The notes below the pieces were generated by a model that was given only the letters and a program-made list of their open reading frames with translations, did no database searches and was not told where the DNA came from. DNA of 64,000 nucleotides from Pristiophorus japonicus (taxonomy: Eukaryota): positions 115,320,001-115,384,000 of the forward strand of contig NC_091985.1 in NCBI RefSeq assembly GCF_044704955.1, given 5' to 3'. The position numbers and the translations under genes were made by a program. Positions 2,243-64,000 of this stretch are shown here, in pieces (position 1 is the first letter of the stretch; each line of letters starts with the position of its first letter).

Positions 2243-5200
2243 ACATAAGAACATAAGAAATAGGAGCAGGAGTAGGCCATATGGCCCCTCGAGCCTGCTC
2301 CGCCATTTAATACGATCATGGCTGATCCGATCATGGACTCAGGTCCACTTCCCTGCCCACTCTCCATAACCCCTTATTCCCTTATCATTTAAGAAACTGT
2401 CTATTTCTGTCTTAAATTTATTCAATGTCCCAGCTTCCACAGCTCTCTGAGGCAGCAAATTCCATAGATCCACAACCCTCTGAGAGAAGAAATTTCTCCT
2501 CATTTCTGTTTTAAATGGGCAGTCCCTTATTCTAAGATTATGCCCTCTAGTGCCAGTCTCCCCTATCAGTGGAAATATCCTCTCTGCATCCACCTTGTCA
2601 AGCGCCCTTATAATCTTATAAGTTCCGATAAGATCACCTCTCATTCTTCTGAATTCCAATGAGTAGAGGCCTAACCTACACAACTTTTCCTCATAAGTCG
2701 ACCCCCTTATCTCTGGAATCAACCTTGTGAACCTTCTCTAAACTGACTCCAAAGCAAGTATATGCTTTCGTAAATATGGAAACCAAAACTGCACGCAGTA
2801 TTTCAGGTGTGGCCTCACAAATACCCTGTACAACTTTAGCAAGACTTCCCTGCTTTTATACTCCATCCCCTTTGCAATAAAGGCCAAGATTCCATTGGCC
2901 TTCCTGATCACTTGCTGTACCTGCATACTAACCTTTTGTGTTTCATGCACAAGTACCCCAGGTCCCGCTGTACTGCAGCACTTTGCAATCTTTCTCCATT
3001 TAAATAATAACTTGCTCTTTGATTTTTTTCTGCCAAAGTGCAATCTCTCACACTTTCCAATATTATACTCCATCTGCCAAATTTTTGCCCACTCACTTAG
3101 CCTGTCTATGTCCTTTTGCAGATTTTTTTGTGTCCTCCTCACACATTGCTTTTCCTCCCATCTTTGTATGGTCAGCAAATTTGGCTACGTTACACTCGGT
3201 CCCTTCTTCCAAGTCGTTAATATAGATTGTAAATAGTTGGTGTCCCAGCACTGATCCCTGCGGCACCCCACTAGTTACTGGTTGCCAACCAGAGAATGAA
3301 CCATTATCCCAACTCTCTGTTCCTTATTAGTTAGCCAATCCTCTATCCATGCTAATATATTACCCCCAACCCCGTGAACTATTATCTTGTGCAGTAACCT
3401 TTTATGTGGCACCTTGTCAACTGCCTTCTGGAAGTCCAAATACACCACATCCACTGGTTCCCCTTTATGCACCCTGTTCGTTACATCCTCAAAGAATTCT
3501 AGCAAATTTGTCAAACATGACTTGCCCTTCATAAATCCATGCTGACTCTGCCTGACCGAATTTTGCTTTTCCAAATGTCCTGCTACTGCTTCTTTAATAA
3601 TGGACACCAACATCTTCCCAACCACAGATGTTAGGCTAACTGGTCTATAGTTTCCTGCTTTTTGTCTGCCTCTTTTAAATAGGGGCGTTACATTTGCAGT
3701 TTTCCAATCTGCTGGGACCTCCCCAGAATGAAGGGAATTTTGGTAAATTACAACTAATGCATCCACTGTCCCTGCCGCTACTTCTCTTAAGACCCTAGAA
3801 TGCAAGCCATCAGGCCCAGGGGATTTATCTGCCTTTAGTCCATTAACTTACTGAGTACCACCTCCTTATGATTGTGATTGAGTTAAGTTCATCCCCCCAC
3901 CCCTCCCCCCCATAGCCCCTTGACTATCTACTGTTGGAATATTATTAGTGTCCTCCACTTTAAAGACTGATACAAAATATTTGTTCAGAGTTTCTGCCAT
4001 CTCCATGTTCCCCATTACTAATTCCCCGGTCTCGTCCTCTAAGGGACCAACATTTACTCTAGCCACTCTTTTCCTTTTTATATACCTATAGAAACTCTTG
4101 CTATCTGTTTTTATATTTTATGCTAGTTTACTTTCATAGTCTATCTTCCCTTTCTTAATCATTTTTTTAGTCATTCTTTGTTGGCTTTTAAACGCTTCCC
4201 AATCTTCTGTCCTCCCACTAGTTTTGGCCACATTGTATGCTCTTGTTTTTTAGCCACGGATGGCTATCTTTTCTCTTACGCCCTTTCCTCCTCACTGGAA
4301 TATATTTTTCTTGAGTGTTGTGAAATATCTGCTTTAATGTACACCACTGTTCATCAACCGTCCTACATTTTAATCTATTCTCCCAGTCCACTTTAGCCAA
4401 CTCAGCCCTCATACCTTCATAGTCTCCTTTATTTAAGCTTAGTATGCTGGTTAGAGATACAATTTTCTCACCCTCCATCTGAATTTGAAATTCAACCATG
4501 CTATGATCACTCATTCCAAGGGGATCCTTTACTAGGAGATTGTGTATTAATCCTGACTCATTACACAGGACTAGATCTAAGATAGCCTGCCCCCTGGTTG
4601 GTTCTGTTATATACTGCTCGAGGAACCTGTCTCTTATGGATTTTATGAACTCTTCCTCAAGGCCAATGTGATTTGTCCAATCAATATGGAGGTTTAACTC
4701 ACCCATGATTATTGCTGTTCCCTTTTTGCAAGCCCCCACTATTTCCTGGTTCATGCTCCGACCAACAGAGTTGTTACCGTTAGGGGGCCTGTAGACTACA
4801 CCCACCAGTGACCTTTTCCCTTTATTTTGTTTATCTCCAACCAAACTATTTCAACATCCTGATCATTTGAGCCAATATCGTTTCTCACTATTGCAGTGAT
4901 TGCATCCTTTATCAATAGAGCTACTCCTTTTCCTTTCTTTCGGTCCAAATACCCCTGAATATTTAATTCCCAGTCCTGGTCACCTTGCAACCATGTCTCT
5001 GTAATGGCTATCAGATCATACCCATTTGTCTCAATTTGTGCTGTCAACTCATCTATTTTGTTACAATTGCTACGTGCATTTAGACAAATCGCTTCTCGGC
5101 CTTTTGGCTAAGATCATGCGTAACTTACCTGACAGGGGAGTAACCATGACCCCAACGTGGTTCTCCCTGGATCAGGAAGGTGATTCTCCTATGCTTTTTG

Positions 5201-5838
5201 GAAATAGGAGGTGGGTGGGGTGGATTGACCCATCCACCTCCACGGAGGTGTGTGGGGGGCCTGACCCATCCACCTCCATGGCACGAACCTGGTATTGCAG
5301 TACTTCCAGGAACGGTGCAGTGGCTCTAGGCCTTTTGGCTAAGAGCATTGGCGCAGAGTGATCCTTGATGTGTGCAAGGTGACCTCTGGCGTTTGTAATC
5401 TGACAAGATGATCTGACAAAGAATTGGAAAGATTGGCAACGAATAAATTTTTTTTTAAATTGCCTCTAAATTTGTTTTTTTACCCTTTTTTCCTGCTTAT
5501 TCCTCTCTCCTTCAATCTCACTTTCTTTATTTTTGTTTTCTAATTCCAGCTTTATCCCCTCCCTGCTGAATCAATTTTCAGGTTCCCATCCCCCTGCCAA
5601 GCTAATTTAAACCCTCCCCAACAGCACTAGCAAACCCCCCGCAAGAATATTGGTCCCGGATCTGTTGAGGTGCAACCCATCTATCTTCTACAGGTCCCAC
5701 CTCCCCCAGAAGTGCTCCCATGCCTCAGGAAGCGAAAGCCCTCCTGCCTGCACCATCTCTCCAGCCACGTATTCATTTGCTCTATCCTCCTATTTCTGTA
5801 CTCACTAGCTCGTGGCACTGGCAGTAATTCAGAGATTA
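2243..5838 (-). mobile_element. CR1 LINE (ORF1 esterase 3' part, APE endonuclease, RT, 3' tail), degenerate
   Basis: Minus-strand ORFs contain ITETWL, VYRPPN, LDLVL, SDH (APE) and NYRPVSL, LDFQKA (RT). Tail reads ACATAAGAACATAAGAA on + at 2243. GATTA occurs at both junctions (2238-2242, 5834-5838). Confidence 0.9.
5088..5459 (+). mobile_element. Chimeric U2/U1 snRNA-derived retroposed element (SINEU-like candidate)
   Basis: 5088-5116 is identical to U2 nt 1-29 (ATCGCTTCTCGGCCTTTTGGCTAAGATCA). 5123-5176 is U1 5'-like (ACTTACCTGACAGGGGAGTAACCATGA). 5191-5319 is the U2 Sm site, duplicated SLIII and SLIV (ACCTGGTATTGCAGTACTTCCAGGAACGGTGCA). 5320-5347 is a second U2 SLI. A unique tail ends AATAAAT10AAA. 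The block interrupts a CR1. Confidence 0.75.
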
Positions 5839-18339: not shown

Positions 18340-19033
18340 GGGAGGAGAGAGACCGGGAGGGGAGGAGACAGACAGAGTGACAGAGCAGAGAGCTCCACCT
18401 CCCAGCTCATTCTCCACTTCCAGTTTTCTCCAACCGCCAATTTCAAACCGTTTTTCTTCAGTAGAACCGAAACTCAGCTCTCCGCTAACTGCAATGCATC
18501 ACCCCCGAAACCAAATTTTAATTTGATCTATTAAGATTCCTTTAATTTGGTTAATTTATAGTTTTATCGGTTGAGGCCCTTTCAGGGGGCACAGGGCTGA
18601 CGTTTCATTGACAATTAACCTAAATGAAAGAGTCAGCGCTCCACACAAACCCTTACAGACTCGGGCTTCATATTCCAGGATTTCCAGAAACCGGAGTTTG
18701 TAAATAAGGTCCTGCTACAATGAAGAGTCAGTAATATTCCCGCCTAAGTGCAGTCCCTTCTGTAACAAGTCGAGCCGGTTCCTTCTATTTCAGTGGCAGC
18801 CCCTATTCCATCTCCCCACACTTCCCGTCCCAGCAGTTTAGTGACACCTTACACACCCAACATGTCCCCAGGTCCTGTGAGGCCCGGCCCAGATCCCATT
18901 GTGTTTTAGTGCAGACAGTGGGGGAGGGTGCAGCCGATGTCAGCGAGTCACCAGGGATCCTGGTTTTATTGGGAATTATTCCTATCTGAAGTCTGGGCCA
19001 GGCACCGAGACAGGAATCATGTGATTCCGGGAT

Positions 19034-19074
19034 CAGCTCTTTTCTGAGAGACGTGGGTGGCTCTGAAAAGAGCC
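19034..19074 (-). terminator. Histone mRNA 3' stem-loop and U7-binding HDE (H1 copy A)
   Basis: Minus strand GGCTCTTTTCAGAGCC (19059-19074) followed by ACCCA and AAAAGAGCTG (19034-19043). Confidence 0.95.
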
Positions 19075-19110
19075 GTTGGGTTCAGATGTTTACAAGTTGC
19101 ACTTGATATT

Positions 19111-19791
19111 TTACTGCGTTTTGGGCGCTGCCTTCTTTGGCTTTGTTGATTTGGGCTTGGCCGCCTTGGGGGTTTTGGGCTTCTTCACAGGAGACTTTTT
19201 CTTAAGGGCTGACGATCTCACCGACTTATTCGGCGCCTGCGCCTTCTTGGTGCCGGCTTTCTTGGCCGCTGGTTTCTTTGTTACAACTTTCTTGGCTGCT
19301 GGTTTCTTCGTTGCGACTTTCTTGGCCGCTGGCTTCTTCGTTGCGACTTTCTTGGCCGCTGGCTTCTTCGTTGCGACTTTCTTGGCCGCTGGCTTCTTCG
19401 TTGCGACTTTCTTGGCTGCTGGTTTCTTGGCTGGAGATTTCTTGGCCGTTGGTTTCTTGGCCTTTACCACTTTTTGTTTGACGATTTTGACGGAGCCGGA
19501 GGCGCCTTTGCCCACGGTGTGCACCAGGATCCCGTTTTCCACACACCTCTTGATACTCCTCTTGATCTGGGACCGGTACTTGGTCATATCCAGGCCGCTG
19601 TTAGTCAGAGCCTTCTTTACCGCGATCATGGACATCCCCTTGCGATCGATGCAACCCCCCACAATCTTGACGATCTGATCGCTCAACTTGGGGCGGGTTG
19701 TCTTGGGCCGTCGAGCAATCTTCTTCTTGGGAGCCTTGGTTTGAACGGCGGCGGCAGGAGGAGCCGTTTCGGCGGCGGCAGTGTCCGTCAT
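19111..19791 (-). CDS. H1: Linker histone H1-like, 226 aa, copy A
   Basis: Starts MTDTAAAETAPP. Winged-helix core (KGMSMIAVKKAL, GKGASGSVKI) and K/A/P-rich tail. Intronless, with stem-loop/HDE. Start set at the ATG at 19791, downstream of the TATA-like element. Confidence 0.93.
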   Translation of the reverse strand: MTDTAAAETAPPAAAVQTKAPKKKIARRPKTTRPKLSDQIVKIVGGCIDRKGMSMIAVKKALTNSGLDMTKYRSQIKRSIKRCVENGILVHTVGKGASGSVKIVKQKVVKAKKPTAKKSPAKKPAAKKVATKKPAAKKVATKKPAAKKVATKKPAAKKVATKKPAAKKVVTKKPAAKKAGTKKAQAPNKSVRSSALKKKSPVKKPKTPKAAKPKSTKPKKAAPKTQ

Positions 19792-19867
19792 GTCGGGAAC
19801 TGTGTCGAAAATCTCTCTGACAGTCAGAACTGGGTCAGAAATGAATCCAGAGGTGGCGGCACAGAGC

Positions 19868-19942
19868 AATTTAAAGGCAGCGAGCGGACGGGGCGGAGAC
19901 ATCCTGCTGTCAGCTCTCGGCCCCTGCAGCATTTCTGTGTTT
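19868..19942 (-). promoter_or_regulatory. H1 promoter: H1 (AC) box, GC box, TATA-like element
   Basis: Minus strand AAACACA (19936-19942), CCGCCC (~19891-19896), TTTAAAT (~19869-19875). Confidence 0.7.
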
Positions 19943-20549
19943 CTCTCTCCCACAAACTCTCCCATACCAATGAAAATCGGTCACTCCACGATCCCAGTCT
20001 AGATCCTTCCTCATTCTAAGACCACAATGTTTGCTGTCGAAAAACTTCCAGCCGAATTCAAGACCCCAGTCCCGATTTAAACCCCTTTCAATGCTGCACT
20101 GATCGCGCTCTCTCAGCCGATCGCTGGCATGGTCTCTGGTTTTCGACTGAAATCTTGACATGAACTCAAACATTACCTTAAATTCCCACTTCGGGGCTGA
20201 GCAGGGGCACGGGGCGATCCTATGACTGGGAAATCATTTTATTTTAGACAAGAGGCACTCGGAAATCGGGCGATGAGTCGGGACACACAAACACAGTGAC
20301 ATTGGACACAGCCGCCCGCCCCTTTAGCACACTCTCTCTGACATTCCGGACATTCACAGGACTAACTGTTCCCCAGATTTACAGTTCCCAGGACAGGCTT
20401 TCCTCTCCGCTCGGCCTGTGCTGCGGATTCACGGGGGTTAGTTGTAGTTTCCCAGCTCAGTAACTGTTAAACATTCTTAGGCCGGCGCTCCTCACAGAGT
20501 CTGTTCCCCAGATTCAGGGGCAGGAGCCAATCACAGCTCTGGCTGTGTT

Positions 20550-22310
20550 AATCATAGAATCATAGACATTTACAGCACGGAAGGAGACCATTTCGGCCCA
20601 TCGTGTCCCTGCCTGCCAACAAAGAGCTATCCAGCCTAATCCCACTTTCCACCTCGTGGTCCGTAGCCTTGCAGGTTACGGCACTTCAAGTGCATATCCA
20701 AGTCCATCTTAAATGTGACGAGGTTTTCTGCCTCTACCATCCTTTCAGGCAGTGAGTTCCAGATCCCCACCACCCTCTGGGTGAAAACAATTTCCCTCAA
20801 ATTCCCTCTAAACCTCCTACCAGTTACTTTAAATCAATATCCCCTGGTTGTTGACCCCTCTGTGAAGGGAACTAGGTCCTTCCTATCCACTCTATCTAAG
20901 CCCCTCATAAATCTTTACACCTTAATTAAGTCTCCCCGCAGTCTACTCTGTTCCAAGGAAAACTACCCAGCCTATCCAATCTTTCATCATGACTAAAATT
21001 CTCCAGTCCAGGCAACATCCTTGTACATCTCCTCTATACCCTCTCTGGTGCAATCACTTCTTTCCTGTAATGTGGTGACCAGAACTGCATGCAGTACACT
21101 AGCTGTGGCCTGACTAATGTTTTATACTGTTCAAGCATAACCACCCTGCTCTTGTATTCTATGCCCCTGCTGATAAAGGCAAGTATTCCGTATGCCTTCT
21201 GAATCATATTTTCTACCTGTCCTGCTACCTTCAAGGATCTGTGGACATGCACTCCAAGGTCCCTCTGTTCCTCTACACTTCTTAGTGCCCTACCATTTAT
21301 TGTGTATTCCCTCGCTTTGTTAGCATCCTCCCCTCACCCCCCGCCCACATGCATTATCTCATACTTCTGTGGATTGAATTCCATTTGCCACTGTTCTGTC
21401 CACCTGACCAGTTCATTGATATCTTCCTGCACTCTGCAGCTTTTTTCTTCATTATCAACCACATGGCCAATTTTTGTATCATCTGCAAACTTCTTAATCA
21501 TACCCCCTACATTCAAATCTAAATCATTGATATATACCACAAAAAGCAAGAGTCCTGCGGAGCTGCACTGCAAACAGCTTATACTTCCTGCCTCTGAGTC
21601 CATTGTTATCCAACTTGGCACTTTGCCTTGGATCCCCTAGGCTTTTACTTTTGTGACCAGTCTGCCATGTGGGATCATATAAAAAGCCTTGCAAAAATCC
21701 ATTTTTACTACATCAAATGCACTACCGTCATCGACCCTACTTATTACCTGCTGAAAAAATTCAATCGTTAGTCTGACATGACCTTCCCCAAACAAATCCA
21801 TGCTGACTTGTCTTTGATTAATCCGTGTTTTTTTAAATGAAGGTTTATCCTGTCCCTCAGAATTTTTTCTAAATATTTTCCCACCACCAAGGTTAAGCTT
21901 ACTGGCCTGTAATTACTTGGTCTATCCCTTTCTCCCTTTGTAAACAATGGTATCACGTTAGTAGTCCTGCAGTCCTCCGGCACAACATCTGCAGCCAGAG
22001 AGGATTGGAAAATAATGGTTAGAGCCTGTGCTATTTCCTCTCTTGCTTGTCTTAATAGCCAGGGAAACATTTCATCCAGGCCTAGGGATTTATCCACTTT
22101 CAAAGGGGCTACACCTCTTAATACTTCCTCTCTCACAATGTTTAGTTCATCTAATATTTCACACTCTTCCTCCCTGATTACAATGTCTGCATCGCTCCTC
22201 TCTTTTGTGAAAACATATGCAAAGTATTCACTAAAAAACATACCCACATCTTCTGCCTCCACACACAGATTACCTTAATGGTCTTTAATAGGTCCTACTC
22301 TTTCTTTAGC
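20550..22310 (-). mobile_element. Old CR1 LINE RT/3' fragment (copy A)
   Basis: NYRPVSL, KFADD and VRPQL.YC motifs in broken minus-strand ORFs. Tail reads AATCATAGAATCATAGA on +. Confidence 0.88.
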
Positions 22311-22814
22311 ACACCGGCTTTTAAATTACTCTATTGTGCACACGCTGAAATATGTAAGGCAGACAGAATGTGAAGAACCTGCTATTTATGTGCAGTTTTC
22401 TCTCCCCAAATGAGCAGTGAACGTTCCTGGTTTACTTCCAGTCTCGCCCTGCTTGCTGTTATTGGACAGTGAGCAGTGGAAACAGATCCAGACAGTAAGG
22501 ATGTGAGGAGTTATACAAAGACCATTTATTGCAGGTGCCAGGTGATAAGTGTGAATGACACATTTTAAACAGAGGCTATTAATTTCAGTTGAACGGTTAG
22601 TCTCATGGGAGTGAAAAATAGAAATCAGATCAGTGCAAATATCCCTACTCCATGGGATAGTCCCATTCATTGAGCAGTGCAGGGGCTGGATTGTGTCTGA
22701 ATGTTCCTAAATTGCTGAAAGTCTGCCCAACACACCTGATATGCAGAGGCTCAATGCTGCAGTGGAATCAGATTCTGACACTGTATCGCTGGCTTTCCTT
22801 TGTGGTTCTTGATA

Positions 22815-45443: not shown

Positions 45444-46950
45444 ATGGAAGTACAAGAGTAGCCCACTAAGGGAAAGGTAGCCCCTTAGCAATCTTAGAAT
45501 AGCGGGCGAATACAACTGGGGACCCGAGGGATCTATAGGGAAAATGCTAGCAGATAAAAACATGAGACTAATTGAGGGAATGAAGAAAAAGGGATGGCAA
45601 CCAGACGACCCACCGGAGGCAGGCGAAGTGGTGGGAGTGCCAGACAAGAAGTATTAGCCTGCTATTGGGAACAAAATAAAGAGAAGGAAAGGAAGGATAA
45701 AATAATACAGGAACTAAAAGCTAAAATAAAAAAGATAGAAGAGGCAGAAGTAAGCAGTAGGAATGGTACAACATGTGCAGCAGTAACTGGGTGACCTACA
45801 GTGCCACCTACCCCACTGCCTGCACCGGTACTAATATATCCCCCACTGGAAGTTTTAAGTGAAGAAATAGAGAATAGTGGGGGACCAGAGTTGGCTCGCA
45901 AATATAATCCAGACGATGACGACTGGGGAAGAGAAGTTGGACCTCCCCCATACCAGAAGGTACGGGCAGCCCCGATCAAGGTAGAATCTGTACCCGGCAC
46001 CCCAGCTGTCCCAGCAGTACCGGCTGCCGGAGGCAACCTGGGCGCGCCCACAATACCTGCCGTGACGCCTCAGATAAAAACCACCTATGTGTCACTGACA
46101 CCCGGGGACACATTGAAGTTATTACAAATGCCACCCATGTTAGAGAGGAGACGAAGTACTGAACAGTTTGGGCAGAAAATACGGGAAATAAGAATATGCC
46201 ACAGCCTTCACAACCGAGATGTTGTGTTAGGTAGTAAGCGTTAGTTAGTAACAGCACAAATGACTGAAGAAATGTGGCAACAGTTGGGACAACGACACTT
46301 GGTGTGCGATGATAGCCCCCACCATTGCGCAGTCGGAGGCAGAATATCAGGCGTTTAAAGCAAACGTAACTTGGGTAGCAGGAGCAATACCCATAAACTG
46401 GGGAATAATCATGGGGGTCACTCAAAACAAGGGGCAATCCGCACATGACTATGAAGAGCGGAAATGGGTGAACTTCCAAATGTACTCGGGAATACTGAAT
46501 CCCACCAGGGATAATCAAGCATTCCTAAAAATATACAAAGACGGGTTGAATACTGCACTCGAAGACATATTAAAAACAGGGCTAGTCATAATGCAAAACT
46601 ATGACGGCTTATCCAGACTGGCGTCTGAGCTGGATGCTACTCAGAAAAGGAAAGTAGCTTCGGTAGAAGCGCATGTGGCCACAGTGGCAGCAGCTGCGGA
46701 AGGAACGAGTGAGGAAGGAAAACTACACCCAGCCCCCTTGACTTGTTTTCATTGTGGAAAAGACGGCCACTTTAGTGGAGAGTGCCAGCATATAAAAGCG
46801 GCTCAAGGGAGGAGTGGGCAATCAAGGCCGAAGTGCCAGAACTGTGACAAATTAGACCATACAGCGAGGAAATGCTGGGCTAAGGGGGAGGGGCGGAAGA
46901 ACAGGGACCCAGACAGATTAGAGGAGCCCCAGGAGGAGAACCACCCCTGA
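45444..46950 (+). pseudogene. gag: ERV gag (disrupted)
   Basis: PPPY late domain (45942-45953). Two CCHC knuckles, CFHCGKDGHFSGEC and CQNCDKLDHTARKC. Confidence 0.85.
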
Positions 46951-47119
46951 CCAAGGGAGAAGTGGTAGCGCTCCTTAGAGAAGCTCGGCGGACTCTGTGA
47001 CCATCCCCCTCCGCAAGAGACGCTTGCTAACGAGGATGTCATAAGTATGCTACAGTTGGCAGCCACTCAATAGGGGCTACTGGCCCCCGGTGAAGATGTG
47101 GAACCACAAAGAGAGGACC

Positions 47120-50100
47120 CAAGAATGTTAGTGCAATGTTAGGGGGCTGGCATTGTGGGATGCTGATAGACACGGGAGCGTCAATATCCATAACTAATCT
47201 AGACTTACCCCTTACCAAGGAAACGATCAGCATGCAACGAGTGGGAGGAGGTAACAGAAAGGCAACTTTAAGTGAAATTGTACTATTGGAAGTACAGGGG
47301 GTAATACTACCCACCCAGTATTGGTGCTGCCCCAATCCCAAAGGCACCATATTAGGATAGAAATATTAAGGGAAATAGGGGTACTCGTAACCGAGTAGTC
47401 TGGGGAGACGAGCATCAAACTCAGTGTAAATTTAACCACCCGGGCCATCAGCAGCAGCAGGTGCCTGGGATCTGTCCAATAGATCCCGAGTGGGAAACAA
47501 AGGGTGCTTGGGGAAGTATATGTCAGTTATACCCTGCCCTATGGGCCCAACACAAACAGGACTGTGGGTTGATGGGGCCCGGGCCAGTCAAGATCCCAGG
47601 CGCAGAACATAAAGCCCACAGGCAACACCCGCTGAAGCCCAACGCTGAAGCAGCTGTCCTTCAGATAGTGAAAGAATTGGAAAGGCAAAGGGTGGTGAGA
47701 CAAACAATAGCTACAAACAACTCACCAGTATGGCCGGTAAAGAAACCAGACGCCTCATATAGGCTGACAATAAACTATACTGTCTTAAATAAAGTTACAC
47801 CCCGGGAGCACCCGATAGTGGCCAGCCCGACAACTATTTTCAATGGCTTGGGCCCGGAACATAAAATATTCACCGTATTGGATATAGCAAATGGATTTTG
47901 GGCCATACCCTTAGACAAAGGGTCACAAGGGAAGTTCGCCTTCACTGTAAGAGGAAAGCAGTATACATGGACTAGAGTGCCCCAAGGATTCCATAACAGC
48001 CCAAGTAAATTCCACCGGACGCTGGCTGGGGTCCTGGAGCCAACAGATGTAGGGGAAGTAAGTACCCTCTTACAATATGTTGACGACAGAGCGTCCACCA
48101 CGGAGAAACAGCACGTGCTGACATTGACCACGGTGCTTGGGGCCCTACAACAGGCAGGGCTGAAAGCCAGTCAAAAAAAGGCCAAGATAGAGAAGGGCCA
48201 AGTCACATACCTAGGGTACATAGTAACACAAGGAAAAAGGCAGAGGATAGGAAGGAGGCCATTAGGACAATGCCAAAGGCAGGGACCGTAAAGGGAGTCA
48301 GACAGGTAGTAGGACTGTTTAATTACTGTCGGAACTTTATTCCAGTATATGCAGAAATGGCTCAGCCCATACAAGATTGGGTAAAAGGAGGAAAGCCCTC
48401 CCAAGAGCTGGTAGACTGGGGCTCCGAACAAGAAGCAGCCTTTCAACAGCTGAAACAGGCCCTTATGAGCGCCCCCACCCTGAGAGTACCGGACCAGAAT
48501 AAGCCCTTCCATGTTTATAATCACCAGAGCAAAAATCACTATAATGCAGTGGTGGCCCAGCAACATGGGGACAAGCAATGACCGGTGAGTATTACTCCTC
48601 TAAGCAACAACCTGTAGCTGCAGGATTATCTAGATGTGTAGCCGCTCTCGACTGCGCAGGCAGGGCAGTCAGAATTAGTGAACCCATAGTAATGTCAGGA
48701 CAAATTATCCTACATACGCAACATACCCTGGTAGAGCTATTAAACACGGGGAGACTGAGAACAATGTCAGACGCAAGAGCGACATGGGAAGCGGTACTAA
48801 TACCCCCGAGCAGCACAGTAACAATAGTAAAAGATAGCAGTAACAACCCCACAGGATGGATCATTACAGAAGGCCACGTTCATGAACGTAACCCGATAGA
48901 GGGGGCAGAGGAAAGTAGCTCGATAAAAGAAGAGCCACTCGAGGGAGCAGAAATGGACCTTTACATACACGGGTCCCATCGGTACATCGACCGAAAGCCC
49001 CAAACGGGTGGGCGGTAGTAGACGGTGAAGGGCAAACACGGGGAGTTGGGCAGTTAGAAGGGAGCCTTTTGGCCCAAGTGCCGAATTAGTCGCCCTAACA
49101 GAAGCCCTCAAATGGGCAAAAGGTAAAAGGGTAAAAATATATAGACAGCCAATACGCGTTTGGGGTGGTCCACGATACTATGGTAGCCTGGTGTCGGCGA
49201 GGTTATATGACATTGGGGAGAGGACCAATTCGACACGAGAACATCGTTAAGGAACTGGTAAAGGCTTCCCTCCAGCCCCAGGAGGAACTGGTAAAGGCTT
49301 CCCTCCAGCCCCAGGAATGTGCAATAGTACAGATCAAAGCCCATAAGAAAATTACTGACAGACATCAGCAAGGTAATGCATGGGCGGATGAGGCAGCTAA
49401 GTGAGCGGCAGAAGTACGGGGCCTACGGGCTAAAATAAGTGCCTGTGCACTTGGGCCGGAAGAAGTAAATATGTTTAAAGTACAGGAGGCAACCATACAG
49501 CAGGATTAAGATGAATGGAAAAGACAGGGAGCTAAACAAGGCGCGGATGGAATCCGGAGGAAAGATTGTAATGTGGTAGCCCCAGAGTGCATACAACAAA
49601 ACTTATTGAGTATATACCACGGGTATGCGCATACAGGTAAGACCAGCATGACGAGTTCAATGTCCCAATGCTGGTGGTGGAAGGGATTGGGAAGAGATAT
49701 TGAAAATTACTGTAGGAAGTGCTTAACATGCGTAAAGCATAACCCAGGTGGAAAAATAAAGGTCAGAATGGGACATCAACCCTGAACAAAGGGACCATGG
49801 GAAAACCTGCAGATAAACTTCACGGGCCCGTTGCCCAATCACCAGGGAAAAACATATTGTTTGGTTATAATAGATCAATTCACAAAATGGATAGAAGCAT
49901 TCGCAACTAGAAATTGCTCAGCTGAGACGGTGGCTAGAATATTAGGAGAAATTATACCTAGGTGGGGAATGTCCCTACAGATAGATTCAGATCAGGGTAC
50001 ACACTTCACGGGTAAAGTAATGAAATAAGCATGCGCCCTACTGGGAATCAAGCAGAAATGTCATATCCCCTATCATCCGGAATCGTCCGGATTAGTAGGA

Positions 50101-50390
50101 CGTACGAACGAAGGACCCTGAAGAATGCATTGGTCAAGGTGATCGACGAGACAGGAAAGGGATGGGTAGATATGCTGCCCTGGATTTTAATGAAGTTAAG
50201 GGCGACCCCAAACCAGACCACCAGACTCACAACTTTCGAACTAATGACAGGAAGGGCAATGAGATTACCTGAGGTTCTAATGACGGAGAGTGATGACGTT
50301 GGACCCTACCGGGACCGAGTAAGAAGATTTGTGATGGAATTATGTAAACAATTACAAGATCTGAAGGCACCGGGAATCACAATGCGGTAA
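47120..50390 (+). pseudogene. pol: ERV pro-pol (protease, RT, tether, RNase H, integrase; disrupted)
   Basis: LIDTGAS; SPVWPVKKPD, LDIANGFWAIP, VPQGFHNSP, YVDD (48076-48087); AELVALTEAL, KAH..GNAWADEAAK; H..H..CRKCLTC, IDSDQGTHF. Confidence 0.92.
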
Positions 50391-52066
50391 TGGGTCCTTA
50401 TGGGGAATGTTTGCGTGTAAAATAGGTATCCCAACCATCACAATAGCCCCAACCACAACGACCCCAGAACCCCCAGGATGCCCAAACATGACACAGGGGG
50501 CAAGCGGAGGATTAGTAATGAAAACAACTAGAGACAAAATCCACTTCGGGGTACGCCAAAGGGTAATTACGGTATTGTTAAACCTAACGGATATAACGAT
50601 CCCACTGTTTTGTGGTAAGAAAACTATAAGATTATATGAAAACCTAACCCTAAGGGCCCTTGAGGGGCCCAAATTCAAGACTATGAAGTTCAACGTAAAA
50701 AAGCCAAATAAATATGGGAAAGGCGGGAGGAGAAAGAGGGGAATATTGGAAATGGTGGGCGCGGGATCTTCAAACAATAGAAGAGCAGATCATCAACCTG
50801 ACACAGATCTTAAAAGGACTGCTGGAAAGGGGAGATGATAGGGGACGGGGCGGAGTAGGAACTGCTACAGGTTGCCCATACATTGCGGAACCATGCATAA
50901 ATGATAAATTTGGTAAACCAGGCTGGATAAAAAAGAAAGAAGGCCGAGATAGTTTGTGCGGGATATGGGGCTTGGATGCTCAATACGGTGGAACATAACA
51001 TAGAACAACTCCAGAATGGGGAGGTGCCAGATTGGATAATCAATGATGTATTTGCTGAATGGACATTGGGCAAGAATGACACCCAAGCCTGTGCGGTCCG
51101 GATGAATAGCCATGCCTGGGTCCCTAAGAACAGGTGTGTAACCAGACATCAGAATATAATAAGGTTTGTGTTATCAATATGTACCACAATATGACATGAC
51201 AAAGGGAAACACATTGTACTAAGTAAACAATATAGGAGAAATAAGGAATCAGACCCATGTGCAGTTTTACAAATTGCATCAGTACGTAATTAAAAAGGGA
51301 AACAATACCAAAGGTGTCCATGTTAAAGATTGTTTTAAGAATAATCAAGTTGTTTTATGCCGACAGCATCCAGACCTCGGTAACAACAACTGTGGATATG
51401 GCCAAACAGAAGGACGTGTTGAGTGTCACACCGCTGACAATGGATTCCGAAACGACTGCAACCTCACAAGGAAATGGAGGCTGGTGTGTGAGCACCACGG
51501 CGGTCAACATGACAGTGGGAGGAGGTACCTACTGCCCGATCACGATCATCGACTTCTGTTTTACACCAAAAGAAGTCGTCGATATTCAGGGATATATCAT
51601 ATATCCAGAATTGAAAGGCGAGTCCGTCAACGGGATGGCGATGGAAACTATCAAAGCAGGGTATAAAGGTTTTGAGGAACCACAAGGACAACATATACCC
51701 AAACTTAGTGAAGAACAAACTAAGTTGGAACAGGACATCCATGAACAACGGCAGAAGTACATCATCCTGATGAAGAAGATCGACAAACTCCAGAAGGACA
51801 CTAAAGAAATGTTGGCAAACCAACCCTGGTATACAAGGCTTTGGAACTTTGGACTAAACATGCAGGTGCACCCCTGGATTAAAATAATATCCCAAGTATT
51901 GGTGATTGTACAATGTGTGGTTTTAACGGTATTGTTGATTGAACTATGTTGGAGATGTAAACGACGGGCGAGGAAAGCCATTGCTCAGGCCACCATAAAA
52001 GCCATAGAAGAAACTAAACCTTTAGTATCTAAGGAAAAATCTGTAAAACGGGTAAATGGTGTGTAA
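50391..52066 (+). pseudogene. env: ERV env-like glycoprotein gene (disrupted, 5' part probably deleted)
   Basis: Furin site RRKR (50728-50739) then GILEMVGAG. Heptad LQTIEEQIINLTQILKGLL, Cys-rich middle, second heptad, Trp-rich stretch, TM helix IISQVLVIVQCVVLTVLLIEL and basic tail. Confidence 0.82.
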
Positions 52067-59547: not shown

Positions 59548-60247
59548 GGGAGGAGACAGACGGAGAGACCGGGAGGGGAGGAGACAGACAGAGTGACAGA
59601 GCAGAGAGCTCCACCTCCCAGCTCATTCTCCACTTCCAGTTTTCTCCAACCGCCAATTTCAAACCGTTTTTCTTCAGTAGAACCGAAACTCAGCTCTCTG
59701 CTAACTGCAATGCATCACCCCCGAAACCAAATTTTAATTTGATCTATTAAGATTCCTTTAATTTGGTTAATTTATAGTTTTATCGGTTGAGGCCCTTTCA
59801 GGGGGCACAGGGCTGACGTTTCATTGACAATTAACCTAAATGAAAGAGTCAGCGCTCCACACAAACCCTTACAGACTCGGGCTTCATATTCCAGGATTTC
59901 CAGAAACCGGAGTTTGTAAATAAGGTCCTGCTACAATGAAGAGTCAGTAATATTCCCGCCTAAGTGCAGTCCCTTCTGTAACAAGTCGAGCCGGTTCCTT
60001 CTATTTCAGTGGCAGCCCCTATTCCATCTCCCCACACTTCCCGTCCCAGCAGTTTAGTGACAACTTACACACCCAACATATCCCCAGGTCCTGTGAGGCC
60101 CGGCCCAGATCCCATTGTGTTTTAGTGCAGAGTGGGGGAGGGTGCAGCCGATGTCAGCGAGTCACCAGGGATCCTGGGTTTATTGGGAATGATTCCTATC
60201 TGAAGTCTGAGCCAGGCACCGAGACAGGAATCATGTGATTCCGGGAT

Positions 60248-60288
60248 CAGCTCTTTTCTGAGAGACGTGGGTGGCTCTGAAAAGAGCC
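60248..60288 (-). terminator. Histone mRNA 3' stem-loop and HDE (H1 copy B)
   Basis: Minus strand GGCTCTTTTCAGAGCC (60273-60288) then AAAAGAGCTG. Confidence 0.95.
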
Positions 60289-60324
60289 GTTGGGTTCAGA
60301 TGTTTACAAGTTGCACTTGATATT

Positions 60325-61035
60325 TTACTGCGTTTTGGGCGCTGCCTTCTTTGGCTTTGTTGATTTGGGCTTGGCCGCCTTGGGGGTTTTGGGCTTCTTC
60401 GCAGGAGACTTTTTCTTAAGGGCTGACGATCTCACCGACTTATTCGGCGCCTGCGCCTTCTTGGTGCCGGCTTTCTTGGCCGCTGGTTTCTTTGTTGCGA
60501 TTTTCTTGGCCGCTGGCTTCTTCGTTGCGACTTTCTTGGCCGCTGGTTTCTTCGTTGCGACTTTCTTGGCTGCTGGTTTCTTCGTTGCGACTTTCTTGGC
60601 CGCTGGCTTCTTCGTTGAGACTTTCTTGGCCGCTGGTTTCTTTGTTGCGACTTTCTTGGCTGCTGGTTTCTTGGCTGGAGATTTCTTGGCCATTGGTTTC
60701 TTGGCCTTTACCACTTTTTGTTTGACGATTTTGACGGAGCCGGAGGCGCCTTTGCCCACGGTGTGCACCAGGATCCCGTTTTCCACACACCTCTTGATAC
60801 TCCTCTTGATCTGGGACCGGTACTTGGTCATATCCAGGCCGCTGTTAGTCAGAGCCTTCTTTACCGCGATCATGGACATCCCCTTGCGATCGATGCAACC
60901 CCCCACAATCTTGACGATCTGATCGCTCAACTTGGGGCGGGTTGTCTTGGGCCGTCGAGCAATCTTCTTCTTGGGAGCCTTGGTTTGAACGGCGGCGGCA
61001 GGAGGAGCCGTTTCGGCGGCGGCAGTGTCCGTCAT
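60325..61035 (-). CDS. H1: Linker histone H1-like, 236 aa, copy B
   Basis: Same N-terminus and globular domain as copy A, with one extra 10-aa tail repeat. H1 box AAACACA at 61180-61186. Confidence 0.93.
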   Translation of the reverse strand: MTDTAAAETAPPAAAVQTKAPKKKIARRPKTTRPKLSDQIVKIVGGCIDRKGMSMIAVKKALTNSGLDMTKYRSQIKRSIKRCVENGILVHTVGKGASGSVKIVKQKVVKAKKPMAKKSPAKKPAAKKVATKKPAAKKVSTKKPAAKKVATKKPAAKKVATKKPAAKKVATKKPAAKKIATKKPAAKKAGTKKAQAPNKSVRSSALKKKSPAKKPKTPKAAKPKSTKPKKAAPKTQ

Positions 61036-61793
61036 GTCGGGAACTGTGTCGAAAATCTCTCTGACAGTCAGAACTGGGTCAGAAATGAATCCAGAGGTGG
61101 CGGCACAGAGCAATTTAAAGGCAGCGAGCGGACGGGGCGGAGACATCCTGCTGTCAGCTCTCGGCCCCTGCAGCATTTCTGTGTTTCTCTCTCCCACAAA
61201 CTCTCCCATACCAATGAAAATCGGTCACTCCACGATCCCAGTCTAGATCCTTCCTCATTCTAAGACCACAATGTTTGCTGTCGAAAAACTTCCAGCCGAA
61301 TTCAAGACCCCAGTCCCGATTTAAACCCCTTTCAATGCTGCACTGATCGCGCTCTCTCAGCCGATCGCTGGCATGGTCTCTGGTTTTCGACTGAAATCTT
61401 GACATGAACTCAAACATTACCTTAAATTCCCACTTCGGGGCTGAGCAGGGGCACGGGGCGATCCTATGACTGGGAAATCATTTTATTTTAGACAAGAGGC
61501 ACTCGGAAATCGGGCGATGAGTCGGGACACACAAACACAGTGACATTGGACACAGCCGCCCGCCCCTTTAGCACACTCTCTCTGACATTCCGGACATTCA
61601 CAGGACTAACTGTTCCCCAGATTTACAGTTCCCAGGACAGGCTTTCCTCTCCGCTCGGCCTGTGCTGCGGATTCACGGGGGTTAGTTGTAGTTTCCCAGC
61701 TCAGTAACTGTTAAACATTCTGAGGCCGGCGCTCCTCACAGAGTCTGTTCCCCAGATTCAGGGGCAGGAGCCAATCACAGCTCTGGCTGTGTT

Positions 61794-63555
61794 AATCATA
61801 GAATCATAGACATTTACAGCACGGAAGGAGACCATTTCGGCCCATCGTGTCCCTGCCTGCCAACAAAGAGCTATCCAGCCTAATCCCACTTTCCACCTCG
61901 TGGTCCGTAGCCTTGCAGGTTACGGCACTTCAAGTGCATATCCAAGTCCATCTTAAATGTGACGAGGTTTTCTGCCTCTACCATCCTTTCAGGCAGTGAG
62001 TTCCAGATCCCCACCACCCTCTGGGTGAAAACAATTTCCCTCAAATTCCCTCTAAACCTCCTACCAGTTACTTTAAATCAATATCCCCTGGTTGTTGACC
62101 CCTCTGTGAAGGGAACTAGGTCCTTCCTATCCACTCTATCTAAGCCCCTCATAAATTTTTACACCTTAATTAAGTCTCCCCGCAGTCTACTCTGTTCCAA
62201 GGAAAACTACCCAGCCTATCCAATCTTTCATCATGACTAAAATTCTCCAGTCCAGGCAACATCCTTGTACATCTCCTCTATACCCTCTCTGGTGCAATCA
62301 CTTCTTTCTTGTAATGTGGTGACCAGAACTGCATGCAGTACACTAGCTGTGGCCTGACTAATGTTTTATACTGTTCAAGCATAACCACCCTGCTCTTGTA
62401 TTCTATGCCCCTGCTGATAAAGGCAAGTATTCCGTATGCCTTCTGAATCATATTTTCTACCTGTCCTGCTACCTTCAAGGATCTGTGGACATGCACTCCA
62501 AGGTCCCTCTGTTCCTCTACACTTCTTAGTGCCCTACCATTTATTGTGTATTCCCTCGCTTTGTTAGCATCCTCCCCTCACCCCCCCGCCCACATGCATT
62601 ATCTCATACTTCTGTGGATTGAATTCCATTTGCCACTGTTCTGTCCACCTGACCAGTTCATTGATATCTTCCTGCACTCTGCAGCTTTTTTCTTCATTAT
62701 CAACCACATGGCCAATTTTTGTATCATCTGCAAACTTCTTAATCATACCCCCTACATTCAAATCTAAATCATTGATATATACCACAAAAAGCAAGAGCCC
62801 TGCGGAGCTGCACTGCAAACAGCTTATACTTCCTGCCTCTGAGTCCATTGTTATCCAACTTGGCACTTTGCCTTGGATCCCCTAGGCTTTTACTTTTGTG
62901 ACCAGTCTGCCATGTGGGATCATATAAAAAGCCTTGCAAAAATCCATTTTTACTACATCAAATGCACTACCGTCATCGACCCTACTTATTACCTGCTGAA
63001 AAAATTCAATCGTTAGTCTGACATGACCTTCCCCAAACAAATCCATGCTGACTTGTCTTTGATTAATCCGTGTTTTTTTAAATGAAGGTTTATCCTGTCC
63101 CTTAGAATTTTTTCTAAATATTTTCCCACCACCAAGGTTAAGCTTACTGGCCTGTAATTACTTGGTCTATCCCTTTCTCCCTTTGTAAACAATGGTATCA
63201 CGTTAGTAGTCCTGCAGTCCTCCGGCACAACACCTGCAGCCAGAGAGGATTGGAAAATAATGGTTAGAGCCTGTGCTATTTCCTCTCTTGCTTGTCTTAA
63301 TAGCCAGGGAAACATTTCATCCAGGCCTAGGGATTTATCCACTTTCAAATGGGCTACACCTCTTAATACTTCCTCTCTCACAATGTTTAGTTCATCTAAT
63401 ATTTCACACTCTTCCTCCCTGATTACAATGTCTGCATCGCTCCTCTCTTTTGTGAAAACATATGCAAAGTATTCACTAAAAAACATACCCACATCTTCTG
63501 CCTCCACACACAGATTACCTTAATGGTCTTTAATAGGTCCTACTCTTTCTTTAGC
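61794..63555 (-). mobile_element. Old CR1 LINE RT/3' fragment (copy B)
   Basis: Duplicate of 20550-22310. Confidence 0.88.
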
Positions 63556-64000
63556 ACACCGGCTTTTAAATTACTCTATTGTGCACACGCTGAAATATGT
63601 AAGGCAGACAGAATGTGAAGAACCTGCTATATATGTGCAGTTTTCTCTCCCCAAATGAGCAGTGAACGTTCCTGGTTTACTTCCAGTCTCGCCCTGCTTG
63701 CTGTTATTGGACAGTGAGCAGTGGAAACAGATCCAGATAGTAAGGATGTGAGGAGTTATACAAAGACCATTTATTGCAGGTGCCAGGTGATAAGTGTGAA
63801 TGACACATTTTAAACAGAGGCTATTAATTTCAGTTGAACGGTTAGTCTCATGGGAGTGGAAAATAGAAATCAGATCAGTGCAAATATCCCTACTCCATGG
63901 GATAGTCCCATTCATTGAGCAGTGCAGAGGCTGGATTGTGTCTGAATGTTCCTAAATTGCTGTAAGTCTGTCCAACACACCTGATATGCAGAGGCTCAAT

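Follow-up and report, generated by a model that had tools for sequence, protein, structure and literature searches.

An snRNA mosaic interrupts a CR1-like element

The window, by which we mean the whole 64,000-nucleotide stretch of DNA that was analyzed, contains a block assembled from pieces of U2 and U1 snRNA (Table 1). The block lies antisense within a minus-strand CR1-like element, which it cuts in the first codons of the endonuclease frame; an interrupted CR1 had been recognized in the first-pass annotation. Elsewhere in the window, a duplicated segment carries a histone H1-like gene in each duplicate, and broken gag-, RT-, and env-like frames likely represent an old LTR element or endogenous retrovirus. 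All 35 matches of the window histone H1 were to shark proteins (51 to 63% identity), which supports a shark-type host, at the clade level only.

Table 1. Coordinates of features in the window
Feature	Position	Strand	Evidence or remark
U2 snRNA nt 1-35, head	5088..5122	+	33/35 identical, first 29 exact
U1 snRNA nt 3-57, covering the 5' end and a stem-loop I with altered loop	5123..5176	+	46/55
U1 nt 28-47, second partial copy, lengthens hairpin	5170..5189	+	18/20, folding
U2 nt 97-147, with Sm-like T-run (5195-5199) and stem-loop III, copy 1	5192..5244	+	38/53, folding
U2 nt 109-186, with stem-loop III, copy 2, and stem-loop IV	5241..5320	+	61/80, Rfam, folding
U2 stem-loop I again (nt 7-29)	5325..5347	+	21/23
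Non-snRNA tail with hairpin, 97 nt	5348..5444	+	Common to family C, longer here
AATAAA (5442-5447) and T/A tail (T9A3 to 5459)	5442..5459	+	Mostly A-rich in other copies
Host CR1-like copy, ORF2 side	3500..5087	-	SINE antisense, in first codons of endonuclease frame
Same CR1-like copy, continuing upstream of ORF2	5460..5830	-	Empty homologous sites in L008, L186
Duplicated segment, first copy	18347..22755		98.6% to second copy
Histone H1-like gene	19111..19791	-	In first duplicate
gag-, RT-, and env-like frames, broken	46264..52066	+	Likely old LTR element or endogenous retrovirus
Duplicated segment, second copy	59563..64000		98.6% to first copy
Histone H1-like gene	about 60325..61035	-	In second duplicate

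Alignment of the block (5088-5459) to the host genome's own U2, which lies in tandem arrays, and to its U1 confirmed the mosaic. The first-pass annotation had the modules in the right order: a start exactly at U2 nt 1, a switch near U2 nt 35 to the U1 5' end and stem-loop I, a return to the U2 Sm region followed by two tandem copies of stem-loop III, stem-loop IV, and U2 stem-loop I again, and finally a dedicated non-snRNA tail ending in AATAAA and a T/A run. It overlooked the second copy of U1 28-47. U2 36-96 is missing from the element and stem-loop II is gone. The head stops 2 to 3 nt short of the Keno cut site, and the branch-point-pairing GTAGTA is lost. The second U2 stem-loop I extends to nt 38, the Keno site, in C1, the simplest relative of the element. 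No clear target site duplication (TSD) flanks the window copy, as had been noticed at first pass (best 6/7 match, 5086-5092 versus 5457-5463); most other copies do have TSDs.

The block folded into a chain of hairpins (z = -4.46), with none of 100 shuffles equally good. Of the two snRNAs that were to be checked against Rfam, U2 exceeded its gathering score (61 bits versus 46) and U1 fell under the cut-off (25.8 bits, E = 6e-4). Because this copy passes the gathering score, Rfam U2 calls are inflated in such genomes. A match to Prion_pknot, below its cut-off, was rejected as a chance resemblance to the repeated stem-loop III. The element does not read as a classical Pol III SINE with a tRNA, 7SL, or 5S head: the only credible Rfam matches, in the window copy and in 4 further loci, were to U2 and U1, and the window copy has internal T-runs (5102-5105, 5195-5199, and 5333-5336).

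A young family with subfamilies

The U2/U1 junction of the block had 2,164 exact matches in the genome and the U2/tail junction had 5,144, with none for the reversed controls; as matches to exact patterns, both counts are lower bounds. Candidate counts from a first look with U2 and U1 (224,200 and 128,409) were rough and are excluded as copy numbers. A DNA search with the block gave 46 matches from the best 40 of 1,892 candidates, mostly near full length and 94 to 100% identical, in agreement with the original proposal of an amplifying family with common junctions and tail.

We then sampled 60 loci from the start of the U2/tail-junction match list, on contig C1, skipping a few matches that had already been retrieved. 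TSDs of 8 to 23 bp (median, 15) were present in 34 of 59 scorable loci, compared to 0 to 2 in a null of mismatched flanks, and 9 of the 60 loci held tandem trains. The element is about 360 bp long. Among 70 sampled copies, the 5' end fell within nt 1-20 in 40 and beyond nt 20 in 30, with 26 at nt 100-170. The median nearest-neighbor distance among 37 near-full copies was 0.9%. The block in the window belongs to a young U2/U1-derived SINE family with more than 5,000 copies.

Two further patterns were seen in the positions of copies. In the sample (L231-L290), 5' ends bunch at element nt 110-127, directly 3' of the Sm-like T-run, where reverse transcriptase could have stalled at a bound protein or hairpin. 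Separate SINE insertions also share an identical position in each of two common host repeats (L259, L267, L286, L014, and L084; L018, L072, L264, and L284), which suggests insertion hot spots.

We labeled the subfamilies A (that of the window copy, and the largest group), B (including B1), and D (head U2 1-52). A simpler family, C, consists of almost the whole of U2, U2 7-35/38, and a short tail, with 561 exact matches, and is likely the precursor. At L309-L333 and L113:6087-6560, family C appears as a U2-dimer SINE with TSDs that has itself been hit by A, B, and the LINE described below.

The first-pass annotation had also predicted that the family's RNA would carry a motif pairing with the 5' splice site. 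This did not hold: ACTTACCTG was found in 1 of 65 heads, that of the window copy, where it is internal, whereas 44 heads read ACTGACCTG and 12 read ACTAACCTG. The U1 loop varies among copies, and the U2 branch-point sequence GTAGTA was retained in 6 of the 65 heads. Judging by head sequence, the family has lost both splicing-recognition motifs.

These features bear on whether the copies might be a family of variant snRNA genes that still function, or an accumulation of pseudogenes from separate template switches. The hairpins are kept and some copies have extra U2 5' pieces (L020 and L126), as either origin would allow. Against both stand thousands of copies with exact common junctions, TSDs, A-tails, 5' truncation, and subfamilies. 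The snRNA parts themselves are short of what a working U1 or U2 has, given the counts for the splice-site motif and GTAGTA above and the absence of U2 36-96 with stem-loop II. We consider this explanation very improbable, and it is already largely refuted.

B1 copies and an intact LINE occupy the same site in U2 genes

What we regard as the main point escaped the first-pass annotation: copies have inserted into U2 genes, at the position that Keno uses. The first sign was a SINE copy inside a neighboring U2 gene, found in the flank of one U2 gene. In the U2 arrays, the poly(A) at the B1 3' end adjoins U2 at nt 38/39, the same junction as that of an intact LINE residing in the same arrays. This LINE is 5.7 kb long and has two ORFs. 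ORF1 (569 aa) has ZCCHC3-type RNA-binding domains and a zinc knuckle, and ORF2 (1,145 aa) has an AP endonuclease, a reverse transcriptase (RT), and a zf-RVT domain. Its U2-resident copies are 99.5 to 99.9% alike. The target reported for Keno in PMC6136364 and PMC4640811, U2 nt 38/39, is the 3' flank of the U2-resident LINE. The nearest matches of its RT were unnamed amphibian (47 to 49%) and pufferfish (39%) RTs, none labeled Keno, and a PDB search found L1 and R2 relatives only.

We took a census of all 56 poly(A)/U2 nt 38 junctions in genuine U2. Twenty-nine were Keno-like LINE 3' ends, 20 were B, 1 was A, and 6 were family C. Of the B copies, 17 lay directly behind a U2 upstream region of type A and 1 behind type B, while 1 was at a contig edge and 1 had a LINE in its head. 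Among 266 units with type-A upstream DNA, in five array stretches, 17 start with a SINE and 15 contain a LINE. The SINE head substitutes for nt 1-37 of the U2 gene, in register with the upstream region, and the DNA upstream of array SINEs is that of plain U2 genes (250/250 and 300/300). A TSD of U2 38-53 (16 bp) was seen both for the LINE (C1003) and for the SINE (L150).

Copies at U2 nt 38 numbered 52, compared to 0.0004 expected from 737 intact target sites, the 52 not being independent, as many are duplicates and six C8 matches represent one or two events. Even a few independent events at this position would be far above chance. The array copies may derive from few insertions spread by unequal crossing-over. 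In the type-A upstream DNA we found no octamer and, in a comparison with U1, no match to the U1 proximal element, so we use the label "promoter" by position.

At one array edge (G000:C19:69.62-69.73 Mb; L101-L105 and L224-L229), insertions were present in 16 of 17 units: intact Keno-type LINEs, in some cases tandem, in 11 and SINE B1 in 5. One B1 copy there has a LINE within its head. Another type of U2 gene, 96% identical to the array type, occurs at G000:C9:111.0 and 113.4-113.8 Mb in duplicated units of 18 to 21 kb, each followed by a truncated LINE and U2 38-191.

Dispersed copies resemble array copies in target and sequence

Dispersed SINE copies were inserted at sites that read GY/A, with G at -2 in 21 of 29 (background, 0.245; P = 7e-8), a profile for which 5 of 34 TSDs were excluded for not beginning with A. 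It resembles the U2 site, AGT/ATC. The target motif of L1 is TT/AAAA. TT was present at 1 of the 29 dispersed sites, so L1 is disfavored as the mobilizer.

Dispersed copies of B1 are also close to array copies in sequence. Of 5 that were compared, 4 match an array copy with 0 to 1 differences in 324 bases. The most derived array variant, recognized by a 26-mer, had 18 exact matches, 16 in arrays and 2 dispersed. Both dispersed copies are 100% identical to it (339/339 and 341/341), and one has a 12-bp TSD. U2 upstream DNA was absent in front of all 29 dispersed heads beginning at U2 nt 1 (best, 6/12 bases), as would be expected if the RNA begins at U2 +1.

Identity between array and dispersed copies does not fix the direction of transfer, and the source could be a dispersed one, with the arrays as recipients. 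The dispersed copies would then be transcribed from unrelated promoters lying upstream, or by read-through out of trains of LINE and SINE, and array turnover would have spread the copies in U2. Such trains were seen in the sample at the frequency given above, LINE-SINE trains exist, and flanking promoters are what Kojima proposed for the crocodilian SINEU elements (PMC4494074). Subfamily A, though the largest group, was not found behind the U2 upstream region, nor was D (0/266 units; 0/31 and 0/56 matches); the 31 further A-tail copies adjoining U2 nt 38 sequence all lie within trains or within copies of family C rather than in plain U2 genes. Unrelated promoters do not account well for 40 of 70 copies starting in U2 nt 1-20, for the lack of common upstream DNA in all 29 heads that start at nt 1, for a newest variant with 16 copies in arrays versus 2 dispersed, or for a D head that equals U2 1-52. 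On balance we judge a dispersed source unlikely.

The identity of the mobilizing LINE can be questioned in the same way. Relaxed Tx1 relatives, or L1, might have moved most of the dispersed copies, leaving the U2-resident LINE responsible only for the insertions at U2 nt 38. The genome has about 1,960 dispersed Tx1-type 3' ends, which are 72 to 94% like the intact LINE (30 read); 5 of these 30 have TSDs of 13 to 16 bp, 3 of them at GC/A. Zero-divergence dispersed B1 copies, on the other hand, need currently active machinery, and the sole intact, near-identical LINE copies that we saw, having sought them in that lineage only, are the U2-resident ones; the L1 part of the proposal meets the rarity of TT/A. 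We find it distinctly improbable that relatives of the U2-resident LINE did most of the work.

Dispersed Tx1 relatives (L181-L210) lie at recurrent sites in other repeats (L181-183 and L185; L202, L207, and L208). In L184:1534-1662 (pattern orientation), a Tx1-type 3' end is fused to U1-like sequence from nt 40, possibly an insertion at a U1 site.

The SINE tail has no counterpart in the partner LINE. We compared it with the intact U2-resident LINE, the one LINE tested for the 3'-end match that the first-pass annotation had proposed to look for, and with the flanks of U1 and U2, and found no match. A tail-only search for a partner LINE gave 30 loci, all SINE copies, from the best 40 of 337 candidates. 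The tail stems were paired in all 235 cells examined and the loops vary, with two-sided covariation in 0 of 19 pairs and 2 one-sided changes; selection on tail structure is suggested.

Proposed mechanism and origin

We consider it probable that the SINE is mobilized by the U2-targeting, Keno-type Tx1 LINE and transcribed from U2 genes that carry insertions. From the positions, junctions, TSDs, and identities observed, we infer use of the U2 promoter, mobilization by the LINE, and the history of the family as follows. The U2 promoter would produce an RNA starting at U2 +1. LINE proteins would then prime reverse transcription on the A-run of the SINE, mostly at relaxed GY/A sites and sometimes at U2 nt 38. 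At U2 sites, the head might anneal to the target, which would place the new copy behind the promoter and renew the source.

Recurrent insertion at U2 nt 38, together with template switches to U1 and U2 RNA, would build the mosaic. The module joints lie at or near the LINE site: U2 nt 38 is where the C1 tail is attached, and the heads of A and D stop at nt 35 and nt 52, respectively. C1 would thus be U2 plus U2 7-38 plus tail, A and B would have had a U1 piece swapped in, and the D head would be the length left by the 16-bp Keno TSD. In C1, the end of U2 is connected to U2 nt 7 across 3 bases that match the 3' flank of the gene itself, consistent with a template switch on host U2 RNA and thus with an origin within this lineage. 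Having lost the branch-point and splice-site motifs, the RNA would be spared from splicing, and the element would no longer contain its own target site.

Under this mechanism, the window copy, as a member of subfamily A, is likely the dispersed product of a source not found among the U2 units. Such a source may be unseen where arrays are broken in the assembly, it may have been lost, or the dispersed-source explanation may be correct. A broader version, to which we give about even chances, is that the element is a promoterless SINE and second-order parasite of the U2 array, which lands at U2 nt 38 by way of Keno, uses the U2 promoter and head, forms an snRNA-like particle, and is still jumping, and that snRNA-headed SINEs generally arise in this manner, out of the gene that an snRNA-targeting LINE attacks.

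Relation to known systems

The closest comparison is with SINEU-1, -2, and -3, which PMC4494074 (Kojima 2015) describes from crocodilians, with none found outside them. Transcription is an open question there, the U1 and U2 promoters lying outside the RNA, and the proposed mobilizer is Tx1-Mar, of a group clustering with Keno. As in SINEU, the head is derived from U1 and U2, the element is under 500 bp with an A-tail and internal T-runs, snRNA pieces have been gained repeatedly at the 5' end, tandem copies occur around the TSD, and a Tx1-clade partner is inferred from a common target, with no LINE found to share the tail. All features of the SINEU class were found here: an snRNA head, an A-tail with many copies, insertion marks, and a target in common with a Tx1 LINE.

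Unlike SINEU, our family has a shark-type host and targets the U2 gene itself at the Keno site; the target given for SINEU is Mariner-N4 (Mariner-N4_AMi). The SINE target preference that we found is U2 nt 38, with otherwise varied flanks. It is further set apart from SINEU, as described there, by copies that follow U2 upstream DNA, by the presence of an intact partner and of zero-divergence copies, and by a different module order. Its origin is likely independent of that of crocodilian SINEU.

The LINE has the AP endonuclease, RT, and U2 3' flank described for Keno in PMC6136364 and PMC4640811, but it has its own altered U2 head and shares the site with a non-autonomous snRNA SINE. Crocodilian Utopia uses the same U2 site, with relaxed specificity outside U2 genes, and is autonomous with a restriction-like endonuclease, according to the account of it in PMC4640811, in contrast to the AP endonuclease here. 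Drosophila R2 SIDEs are likewise non-autonomous and occupy their partner's site in a tandem RNA gene, where they are made as part of the host transcript. SIDEs, however, derive from their LINE by internal deletion and carry a ribozyme (PMC3414825). This SINE contains nothing from a LINE; it is assembled from the RNA of its target, and its copies have reached thousands of sites away from that target.

A literature search, which did not extend to Repbase, Dfam, or subscription journals, turned up neither an snRNA-derived SINE in sharks nor any SINE that uses the Keno site; a paper on shark SINEs (PMC5499810) never mentions snRNA. The new finding is that B1 occurs within genuine U2 genes, at the position that Keno uses, with its head continuing in register from the upstream region of the gene. 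With this family, snRNA-headed SINEs would have originated a second time, likely independently, and its proposed mechanism would explain why the heads break at U2 nt 35-53. SINE and LINE together would disable about 32 of 266 assembled U2 units. With candidate sources behind U2 upstream DNA, an intact LINE, and identical dispersed copies, the question of how SINEU-type elements are transcribed becomes testable at named loci.
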